Notes under the pieces: model-generated
Database searches by the model: none
The model's input: the letters and a program-made list of their open reading frames with translations, nothing else
Told to the model about the DNA's origin: nothing
Program-made: the position numbers and the translations under genes
From: a virus
Lineage: Duplodnaviria; Heunggongvirae; Uroviricota; Caudoviricetes
Length of the DNA stretch: 64,000 nucleotides
IMG/VR virus record: IMGVR_UViG_3300024269_000017
Strand: one strand, 5' to 3'
Part shown: in pieces, positions 428 to 1,262 of the stretch
Position numbering within the stretch: position 1 is the stretch's first letter
Layout: every line of letters starts with the position of its first letter

Positions 428-522
428 CAAAATGGGCGAGAAATCGCCCATTTTTTGCTGTTTTTGTCCGGTTTTGTGCGGTTTTACTAGAAAAATCGCA
501 TAATTTTTGTTGATTTTGCCTA

Positions 523-551
523 TTGACAAATGCGGCGGGCTGTGGTATAAT
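523..551 (+). promoter_or_regulatory. consensus sigma70 promoter (TTGACA-N17-TATAAT)
   Basis: ttgaca at 523-528, 17-nt spacer, tataat at 546-551. Lies in an ORF-free region. Confidence 0.55.
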
Positions 552-836
552 AATAGAGGGGAGTTGAGCGGGCCGGTCGCGGGCGATCCGGACCGAATTT
601 CCCGATCGGACCTGTATATGCAAATTTTTCTCTTGAATGCAACTATATGCAACTAATTACCTTGAATCCCGAAACCCCGGTCGGGCCCCGCCGATCGGAT
701 AACCGATCGGCTATCATATGCGCTCGTGCGCGGTGAAAGCGATTCCTCCAGCGCCTCACAAATCAATTCTCTCTGCCCCTCAGCGTAGATCGAACATACC
801 CCGCGCGTTCTCTGGAACATGCATATGCTGCGGAAT

Positions 837-865
837 TTGACAAATTGAATTAAATATGATATAAT
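837..865 (+). promoter_or_regulatory. consensus sigma70 promoter with extended -10 (TGaTATAAT)
   Basis: ttgaca at 837-842, N17, tgatataat ending at 865. Confidence 0.55.
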
Positions 866-897
866 ATTTAAAAAAGGCACCTCCGCCGACCGGGAAA

Positions 898-926
898 TTG
901 ACAACATAATTTTTTTATGATATAAT
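898..926 (+). promoter_or_regulatory. consensus sigma70 promoter with extended -10
   Basis: ttgaca at 898-903, N17, tgatataat at 918-926. Confidence 0.55.
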
Positions 927-978
927 AAAAGTAGAAGGATATAGGCCGACCGGAAAGTCGGCAACAAGAGGAAGGAGA

Positions 979-1008
979 TTTGACAAATAAACAAATATAT
1001 GATATAAT
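979..1008 (+). promoter_or_regulatory. consensus sigma70 promoter with extended -10
   Basis: ttgaca at 979-984, N18, tgatataat at 1000-1008. Confidence 0.5.
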
Positions 1009-1224
1009 ACGGTGGGGCATATTTTTACCGATCGGTAATAGATCAAGAGGAGCAAGAGTAAAGAATAGCAAGTGGACGGGCTGGCATATGCGGCATAATA
1101 TATTGAACTTAATTACGGACACGAGGACGGATAAATGAGTAGAGTAGTCTAGGCCCGATCGGGCCACCCCACTTCCAGAATTTTCCCAGTTTTTACAATT
1201 TTATCTATCCTCATCTTCTCTCCC

Positions 1225-1262
1225 TTGATTTTTATAAAAAAATTTGCTATAATATATATGTA
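1225..1262 (+). promoter_or_regulatory. phage promoter family member (TTGATT-N17-TATAAT + ATATATGTAA leader)
   Basis: ttgatt at 1225-1230, tataat at 1248-1253, atatatgtaaag downstream. Confidence 0.6.

Follow-up and report, generated by a model that had tools for sequence, protein, structure and literature searches.

Gene-less consensus promoters with promoter-proximal palindromes in a conserved noncoding region that ends a phage early-type promoter array

Introduction

Why should four perfect promoters stand in a row in DNA that encodes no apparent protein? The question is raised by positions 428–1344 of IMG/VR virus record IMGVR_UViG_3300024269_000017, a 64,000-nucleotide (nt) stretch of Caudoviricetes DNA analyzed here at its full length (the window), which looks like part of a phage-like genome of ~155–175 kb. 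The initial annotation, made from the DNA letters of positions 428–1262, described tandem promoters and palindromes in a region free of open reading frames (ORFs), placed them near a genome end, and suggested that they might double as a regulator-binding array, a replication origin (ori), or a packaging (pac) site. We compared the locus with its relatives and weighed these readings. The one that we favor, with somewhat less than an even chance of being right, is also the first of these suggestions: positions 428–1344 would be a conserved, ORF-free transcription-control region in which gene-less promoters are gated by promoter-proximal palindromic operators.

Results

Four consensus promoters are followed at a fixed distance by palindromic sites

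A pattern scan finds exact TTGACA-N17-TATAAT at four places in the region, all on the + strand (P1–P4; Table 1), each of which agrees with the consensus in 12 of 12 bases, has its two boxes 17 nt apart, and shows the TG of an extended –10 (two bases ahead of the –10). The number and direction of the promoters in the initial annotation stand, with three corrections: the last one starts at 980 and not at 979, no spacer is 18 nt long, and the extended –10 is present in all four promoters rather than in three. The window contains six exact matches, four of which are P1–P4, against 0.01 expected from dinucleotide-preserving shuffles. Judged by the sigma-70/sigma-A consensus, P1–P4 are housekeeping-sigma promoters of the type used by host RNA polymerase (RNAP), as originally proposed. 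They also look like members of an early, host-takeover class, which agrees with their previous description as early promoters, and we infer their activity and timing.

The palindrome CCGATCGG occurs five times in the region, one copy lying inside the 14-bp GGCCCGATCGGGCC, as previously annotated, and only once more in the window. It is better written as CCGRYCGG, a motif with eight copies in 602–1162 and 14 in the window, where 1.1 are expected. Sites start 21, 20, 19, and 19 nt past the –10 of P1, P2, P3, and P4, respectively, and the sequence between –10 and site is unrelated among the paralogous promoters. To follow this arrangement in other genomes, we fetched relatives via homologs of gene X, the gene that follows the region, which gave 13 full-length loci with 41–93% identity in gene X. 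The distance of 19–21 nt holds for P1–P4 in nearly all relatives, and it is 19–20 nt at the P2-like promoter of six more distant loci (L031, L034, L036, L045, L046, and L047). The 13 relatives have 85 sites in 13.5 kb of gap and only seven in 91 kb of flanks, six of which adjoin the stop codon of a gene for a tandem winged-helix protein. The two central bases are AT, AC, or GT in 73 of 75 CCGNNCGG copies from 11 gaps, and AC and GT are about equally common (21 versus 17), as strand-symmetric recognition of DNA would lead one to expect. This is the make-up of an operator array: a repeated site, locally over-represented, which overlaps the RNAP footprint at a fixed position. Taken together, the fixed promoter distance, the strand-symmetric variation, and the strict locality point to a DNA site that is read together with RNAP.

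In the operator model, the terminator at 429–454 would end an array of small early genes, and P1–P4 would then fire rightward and, with a fifth promoter of another class (P5), would feed a single gene, gene X, since no intrinsic terminator is detected between P1 and gene X in this genome. We infer that protein binds CCGRYCGG; the motif would be an operator, recognized by a two-fold-symmetric protein with sequence specificity. With a start of transcription 7 nt past the –10, the operator would cover ~+13 to +21, inside the RNAP footprint. Further copies cluster in a conserved block after P1 (the P1 block) and before P5. Bound protein would occlude the downstream DNA channel of RNAP or block promoter escape. 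P1–P4, which would be very strong promoters, would thus be shut off or throttled specifically, with the operator-less early promoters and P5 left untouched.

The region is noncoding, and its motif set outlasts the proteins around it

The claim that the region holds no plausible ORF is borne out by the comparison. Mechanical ORFs reach 133 amino acids, and none is conserved: the longest ORFs in relatives switch strand and frame, tblastn matches are split among frames, peptides encoded after P3 and P4 show no conservation in relatives, and gene callers left the gap (917–1166 bp) empty in almost all relatives. Small conserved ORFs were therefore rejected. Base composition agrees with the annotated GC islands (0.70 at 560–600, 0.55–0.70 at 660–760, and 0.60 at 1140–1180, versus 0.15–0.30 at the promoters). 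The DNA in between had been called AT-rich, which does not hold for the region as a whole, whose GC content of 43% equals that of the window. Repeated CATATGC motifs were also found as described (at 715, 822, and 1085), together with a tandem 29-nt repeat of the form TATATGCAA..CTTGAAT at 615 and 644 (two matches versus 0.03 expected).

All 13 loci share one order of elements: terminator, P1, GC hairpin, GAATTTCCCGATCGG, the TATATGCAA repeats, twin sites, P2, P3, P4, a purine-rich/ACGG stretch, GGCCCGRYCGGGCC, a variable CT-rich stretch, P5, and gene X. Their noncoding blocks reach 0.88–0.95 identity, as high as or higher than the flanking genes, and the mean pairwise identity of 0.95 at 615–644 and 0.94 at 1005–1034 equals that of the conserved upstream gene and exceeds that of gene X. 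P1 is kept in 11 of the 13, its –10 being deleted in L005 and L020. The most divergent members of this set (L018, L025, and L026) have P2 and P3 without an exact site, a point to which we return below.

Scanning IMG/VR for a perfect promoter followed after 19–20 nt by CCGRYCGG returned 15 loci, of which nine, plus three found with a second pattern, are syntenic distant relatives. Five high-GC matches (L030, L033, L038, L043, and L044) were set aside as unrelated; no other feature of the locus recurs in them, and chance copies of the motif are frequent in DNA of 61% GC. In the syntenic L031, the upstream protein is only 31% and the winged-helix protein 36% identical, yet the motif set is still present. 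The gene at the gene X position of distant relatives has only an N-terminal motif in common with gene X (hhalign probability of 95% for L034, weak for L031). In these distant genomes, the hairpin, the CATATGC motifs, the first and the twin sites, and a single P2-like promoter plus site are retained, as is P1 in some of them. They lack P3 and P4, and the module of ACGG repeats, palindrome, and CT-rich tract (the Z module) sits downstream of gene X (L031, L036, and L047). The P2-like unit with its downstream site is found in every lineage. This unit is flipped as a whole in L034, L041, and L032, where it diverges from the promoter of gene X and runs into the P1 block in the antisense direction. 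Small promoter modules have evidently been inverted and shuffled between lineages. We also observed back-to-back and face-to-face promoters 20–60 nt apart in L034 (6778–6916), L047, and L045.

All related genomes examined thus have the palindromes, at conserved positions, the reverse of the absence that the initial annotation had named as counterevidence. With an identity at least equal to that of flanking genes, and a motif set that outlasts 31–36% protein identity, the locus is under selection. Conservation of such a set where the neighboring proteins can barely be aligned is unusual for phage noncoding DNA and marks function.

Table 1. Elements of the locus and its surroundings (window coordinates)
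Feature	Position	Strand	Remarks
Intrinsic terminator	429–454	+	Closes the upstream early-gene array; from a terminator scan
P1	523–551	+	Perfect promoter; GC-rich spacer, as in upstream class A promoters
Inverted repeat/hairpin CGGGCCGGTCGC-GG-GCGATCCGGACCG	569–595	+	Holds the variant site CCGGTCGC (573–580), the site that follows P1
Site 1, CCGATCGG	602–609		Inside invariant GAATTTCCCGATCGG; also in distant L031 and L034
Two tandem 29-nt repeats TATATGCAA-N-CTTGAAT	615–672	+	Include the most conserved 30 nt of the locus
Site 2, CCGGTCGG	677–684
Twin sites, CCGATCGG (691–698 and 703–710)	690–711		9-bp inverted repeat/hairpin
P2	837–865	+	Perfect promoter; AT-rich spacer
Site CCGACCGG after P2	886–893		Ends 4 nt before the P3 –35
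P3	898–926	+	Perfect promoter; P2 paralog (repeat family D1)
Site CCGACCGG after P3 (946–953)	945–962	+	5' arm of a GCCGAC-CGGAAA-GUCGGC hairpin
P4	980–1008	+	Perfect promoter; some relatives have TTGAAA as the –35
Nearly invariant initial transcribed region ACGGTGGGG..TTTTTACCGAYCGG	1009–1038	+	Follows P4
Site after P4, CCGATCGG	1028–1035		Within a 14-bp palindrome (1025–1038)
Purine-rich stretch	1040–1151	+	CAAGAG and ACGG repeats (1113–1135), GCATATGC (1084–1091)
Z module	core 1152–1165		ACGG repeats, 14-bp palindrome, CT-rich tract
14-bp palindrome GGCCCGATCGGGCC	1152–1165		Contains the CCGATCGG site at 1155–1162
Pyrimidine-rich stretch	1166–1224	+	Phased T-tracts
P5	1225–1265	+	One copy of the class B cassette (..TGnTATAATATATATGTAAGG); promoter TTGATT-N17-TGcTATAAT at 1225–1253
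Two hairpins in the 5' untranslated region of the P5 transcript	1269–1293 and 1303–1319	+	Other sequences at the same place in relatives
Gene X	1345–1950	+	201 amino acids, no known family; only gene of the predicted transcription unit
Bidirectional terminator	1949–1974		Directly after gene X
Only other CCGATCGG of the window	2718–2725		Adjoins the stop codon of the winged-helix gene; same position in 7 of 13 relatives
Tandem winged-helix gene	2726–3271	–	181 amino acids; 1.4 kb from the region

Some sites lie in hairpins, which raises an RNA-level alternative

A somewhat unlikely alternative is that the region acts through RNA, as an abundant noncoding or leader RNA whose CCGRYCGG islands are RNA hairpins. 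Such hairpins could be 5' stabilizers or could recruit an antiterminator in the manner of boxB, or the transcript could be a sponge rich in Shine-Dalgarno-like, ACGG, and CAAGAG repeats. Several features speak for it. The P1 transcript would start with a stable hairpin (569–595, with a folding energy of –22 to –27 kcal/mol as RNA) that shows one compensatory and three G-U changes, with one mismatch in the window copy, and whose position is kept in distant lineages by a hairpin of other sequence (L031, L034, and L047). In all 13 relatives, each twin site is the complement of the other (AT/AT or GT/AC), so that the pair always forms the 9-bp hairpin, and L016 and L021 differ there by a double compensatory change. 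Six independent cases were found of 14-bp palindromes centered on sites with unrelated flanks, where ~0.6 are expected. P4 is followed in five relatives by a hairpin and U-run that would yield an RNA of ~50 nt, the 27 nt after P4 are nearly invariant, and the + strand is strongly purine-rich at 920–1160.

Other observations fit RNA poorly. Rfam gives no match to the region at gathering score and only noise up to E = 10 (nor does it give any for the upstream 10 kb at E up to 0.1). In most relatives, the sites that follow P2 and P3 lack a usable stem, the hairpin after P3 being confined to the window, L016, and L021, and the segment from P4 to the palindrome has a weak consensus fold. Support for base pairing amounts to one compensatory event each for the P1 hairpin and the twin-site hairpin, the remainder having no consistent fold. 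Some single-sequence folds pair the P4 site with the 14-bp palindrome over a long range, but this was rejected: pairable combinations (11 of 12) are no commoner than chance, the site frequencies predicting a fraction of ~0.8. The equal frequency of AC and GT centers shows no G-U bias on the transcribed strand. Moreover, the P1 block is retained where P1 has been deleted (L005 and L020) or is absent (L034 and L036), and since the nearby promoters of L034 all point into it from the other side, any RNA made there would come from the opposite strand. This suggests that the P1 block acts as DNA rather than RNA, which we consider probable.

The operator model, to which we now return, also has points against it. 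First, its cognate binder is at candidate level. Second, a contiguous 8-bp palindrome is short for a helix-turn-helix dimer and is more typical of ribbon-helix-helix proteins or restriction/modification enzymes. Third, P2 and P3 lack an exact site in the three divergent members mentioned above. Fourth, the excess of 14-bp site-centered palindromes with differing flanks, the constant complementarity of the twin sites, and the P1 hairpin kept with another sequence point to selection for hairpins (RNA or cruciform) or to template-switch mutation. Finally, the model explains neither the invariant 27 nt after P4 and the TATATGCAA repeats nor the flip from purine-rich sequence at 920–1160 to pyrimidines and T-tracts. 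These unexplained features keep an RNA or origin-type reading alive.

P1–P4 are the tail of a long promoter array

The initial annotation saw an early promoter cluster near a genome end. The cluster is not a free-standing one: an identical contig (L001) that extends the window by 8656 bp upstream contains 15 further + strand promoters of the same class (class A, TTGAC-N-N17-TGnTAnAAT), about one per small ORF. Fourteen of them are exact TTGACA-N17-TATAAT and one has TACAAT; none of the 15 is followed by CCGRYCGG. The class A array therefore comprises at least 19 promoters over ~8.6 kb (L001 1011–9636, window –7645 to 980), and P1–P4 are its last 460 bp. It resembles SPO1-like and T5-like host-takeover modules, and one of its small ORFs, ~4 kb upstream, has a SpoVT/AbrB (MazE) domain. 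The terminator between the upstream genes and P1 has a GC-rich stem and a U-run, and its stem covaries among relatives (GGGCG/CGCCC versus CCGCC/GGCGG), a compensatory change. At the left edge of the array is a second ORF-free stretch, of 450 bp (L001 611–1056, ~8 kb upstream of the window), with a pair of perfect, divergent promoters (1011 on the – strand and 1057 on the + strand). From the promoter that points left, ~260 nt of GC-rich untranslated sequence extend to a terminator, and neither CCGRYCGG nor an Rfam match is found in this left-edge gap.

P5 belongs to a different class. The class B cassette (~55 nt, ending in TGATATAATATATATGTAAGG) is present in 26 copies in the window against 0.08 expected, 25 of them on the + strand, spanning 1248–58334 (for example, 9590–9630, 22224–22264, and 44091–44131). 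Its consensus is ..TTGAwwwTTtcAAAAAAtTTTGATATAATATATATGTAAGGTTGAGAGAGGA, and in many cases a terminator hairpin precedes the cassette and is fused to it. Since P1–P4 end the class A array and P5 is class B, the region is a junction of two promoter regimes. The CT-rich stretch before P5 is hypervariable, ~60–240 bp among relatives, and contains lineage-specific tandem repeats such as a 21-nt repeat (two copies) in L007 and ACAATTT repeats in L003.

The class A array ends at the site cluster in all lineages, and the 6–14 kb available contain no other sites. Together with the second ORF-free region that bounds the array on the left, this exact coincidence would suit a terminal-repeat boundary or packaging signal, of which the genome end or pac site of the initial annotation is a version: a long terminal repeat would contain the early array, with the gap as its inner edge, recognized by terminase. 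Arrays of small genes with their own consensus promoters are typical of terminal-repeat host-takeover modules (SPO1, T5, Twort-like), and clusters of short GATC-containing repeats define the pac site of bacteriophage P1. We nevertheless hold this reading to be very unlikely. There is no terminase gene nearby, the left boundary of the array lacks CCGRYCGG, and the GACC and GGTC variants of the site center destroy GATC. In addition, the locus lies at arbitrary contig offsets: it is internal in all contigs, at differing offsets in those of 155–175 kb, and preceded by 34 kb in one of 41 kb. Contig ends located 80–185 nt upstream of gene X were discarded as evidence of a terminus; they fall in or beside the class B cassette, and this repeat explains the contig breaks near the locus. 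The assemblies, from which physical termini are not readable, neither support nor exclude a terminal-repeat boundary, and the suggested ori and pac functions are possible on circumstantial grounds.

A purine-to-pyrimidine switch and a nearby winged-helix protein bear on origin and partition readings

The purine-rich run on the + strand extends over 240 nt and switches to pyrimidines and T-tracts at the 14-bp palindrome. Starting from this switch, one could see the region as a replication origin activated or primed by transcription, with binding sites beside strong promoters, R-loops, and a bent, easily melted T-tract region, a reading that we regard as rather improbable. The P1 block is conserved as DNA and combines two or three kinds of short repeats that vary in number, spacing, and orientation, it is flanked by strong promoters whose orientation differs by lineage, and the P4 transcript would start with an invariant GGTGGGG ahead of the purine-rich run. 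A tandem winged-helix protein with a weak resemblance to Rep initiators (and also to ScpB and Stn1) is encoded nearby. However, there are only two 29-nt direct repeats, fewer than the three or more repeats of 17–22 bp at helical spacing that make an iteron array, and no helicase, primase, or polymerase gene is recognizable nearby. No DnaA box was seen on reading the sequence, for which no pattern scan was run. GC skew is uninformative, as nearly all genes are on one strand, and the Rep resemblance (E ~5e-3, TM score of 0.3) is no better than that to other tandem winged-helix proteins. The fixed spacing of promoters and sites would moreover have no explanation.

The winged-helix protein itself gives subthreshold helix-turn-helix matches (MarR, Crp, and IclR), a match to a PHROG annotated ScpB, and a weak match to the PHROG "replication initiation protein." It is modeled (predicted local distance difference test, pLDDT, of 78) as two winged helices in tandem, for which Stn1, ScpB, and plasmid Rep are weak structural matches, and its family is confined to this phage clade. 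The ScpB match, along with eight or nine short repeated sites interleaved with promoters, would also suit a centromere-like, autoregulatory partition site array, like parC of plasmid R1, in a plasmid-prophage. This is extremely unlikely, as no ATPase of the ParA/ParM type and no ParB were recognized adjacent to the locus, no evidence of a plasmid lifestyle was found, and the PHROG match reflects the tandem winged-helix fold only. Under the operator model, the protein is instead one of three candidate binders, with gene X and a small early protein of the SpoVT/AbrB type. That it is encoded 1.4 kb away and that the sole other site of the window adjoins its stop codon are suggestive only.

A further, unlikely possibility joins elements of these readings, in that the region might be a new kind of promoter-dense noncoding hub. 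The CCGRYCGG islands, the TATATGCAA repeats, and the switch from purines to pyrimidines would jointly make up either an R-loop origin primed by host RNAP and gated by the palindromic operator, or a structured early RNA, made in very large amounts, that binds up a host factor. The tandem promoters would then serve to load polymerase or make RNA rather than to express protein.

The locus resembles known early-promoter and operator systems in principle and belongs to none by sequence

We know of no description of this motif and layout, although the operator principle is familiar. The INPHARED phage collection gave no DNA match, and protein searches of cultured phages found no relative of the upstream gene and one weak match to the winged-helix protein. 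Searching IMG/VR with gene X and an exact 20-mer returned nothing, the four matches of a 19-mer in JGI metagenomes were all chance, with no common context, and a literature search for CCGATCGG found nothing relevant. Nor do the consensuses of CodY, LexA, Spo0A, DnaA, and sporulation sigma factors fit the motifs convincingly.

As regards the promoters, large virulent phages of Firmicutes (Kayvirus and the SPO1 module) have the same consensus –35, 17-nt spacer, and extended –10. Their early promoters form the same long, co-oriented array with one promoter per small gene, presumably used by host RNAP, as illustrated by the 58 early promoters of Kayvirus vB_SauM-515A1, of the form TTGACW-17-TRTGN-TATANT (PMC7698491). 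The differences are that the four promoters described here are gene-less and each have a specific palindrome within the sequence transcribed first, and that the clade has no cultured relative. The A1-A2-A3 promoters of T7 are likewise strong tandem host-RNAP promoters within a few hundred bp, placed before one early gene (0.3). However, the T7 cluster lies <1 kb from the leading end and serves DNA entry, whereas P1–P4 end an 8.6-kb array in a genome whose end is not demonstrable from assemblies, and T7 has no operator downstream of each promoter.

As regards the sites, lac O1 (centered at +11) and the stoperators of mycobacteriophage L5, bound by gp71, are also short sites past the start of a strong promoter with extra copies nearby. 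The site described here differs in having only 8 bp with an RY-degenerate center and in having candidate binders only, and it is palindromic and confined to one locus, unlike the L5 stoperators, which are asymmetric, orientation-dependent, and spread over the genome. The boxB element of lambda nut shares a 5-bp GC stem and a 4–5-nt loop after early promoters (GGCCC-GAUC-GGGCC here versus GCCCU-GAAAA-AGGGC), and N antitermination has the same location at the switch from early to later genes. By contrast, most sites here are stemless, no boxA was seen on inspection, and no terminators were detected inside the unit in this genome. Iteron origins bound by tandem winged-helix Rep proteins have the same combination of short repeats by an AT-rich or bent stretch with a winged-helix gene nearby; here, there is no array of at least three iterons at helical spacing, and the fold match is weak and not Rep-specific.

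As regards the cassette, P5 and the 25 other copies recall PeSL, the composite promoter-terminator cassettes of T4-type phages (PMC2839356, PMC4122927), in being near-identical ~55-nt cassettes at gene boundaries, often fused to a terminator. So do the modules of the locus, which have been duplicated, inverted, and relocated from lineage to lineage. Phage group and sequence differ, however, and P1–P4 are outside the cassette family. The analogy of P5 is functional only, with no sequence relation to the T4-type PeSL.

If the operator model is true, the region would hold a compact regulatory code for a widespread, uncultivated, tRNA-rich clade known only from metagenomes (~155–180 kb). It would combine two host-type promoter classes with a sequence-specific switch acting on only a few gene-less promoters where the two classes meet. 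Both the perfect promoters and the 8-bp palindrome might also find use as portable parts.

Other features of the window

The product of gene X is modeled as all-helical with a long coiled coil, at low confidence (pLDDT of 60). Its homologs share a C-terminal acidic-hydrophobic motif (SDDxILRDFVNSL, 1909–1947) after a variable linker, which looks like a docking peptide. Beyond gene X, on the minus strand (2590–2650), the leader of a gene for a 153-amino-acid protein contains a perfect 15-bp hairpin, GGTATGGTATACCTC..GAGGTATACCATACC, preceded by the palindrome TGTACAAAA-N9-TTTTGTACA.

The window contains 33–36 tRNA genes, as well as auxiliary metabolic genes. The tRNA genes lie within 18549–37301 and include one with a CTA anticodon, of the amber suppressor type (30275–30365). 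Three long tRNA-like Rfam matches of 115–126 nt (18549–18674, 18681–18798, and 19093–19207) were not called by ARAGORN. Genes of one-carbon and S-adenosylmethionine metabolism encode FolD (3904–4737), a formate-tetrahydrofolate ligase (56577–58238), and an S-adenosylmethionine synthetase (37183–38415), and there is a citrate-transporter-like gene (20591–21937); these genes might be linked to nucleotide or DNA modification. Finally, an 823-amino-acid protein (41583–44054) has the shoulder and repeat domains of the major vault protein (Pfam E = 1e-21), and a flotillin/SPFH protein is encoded at 53772–55229.

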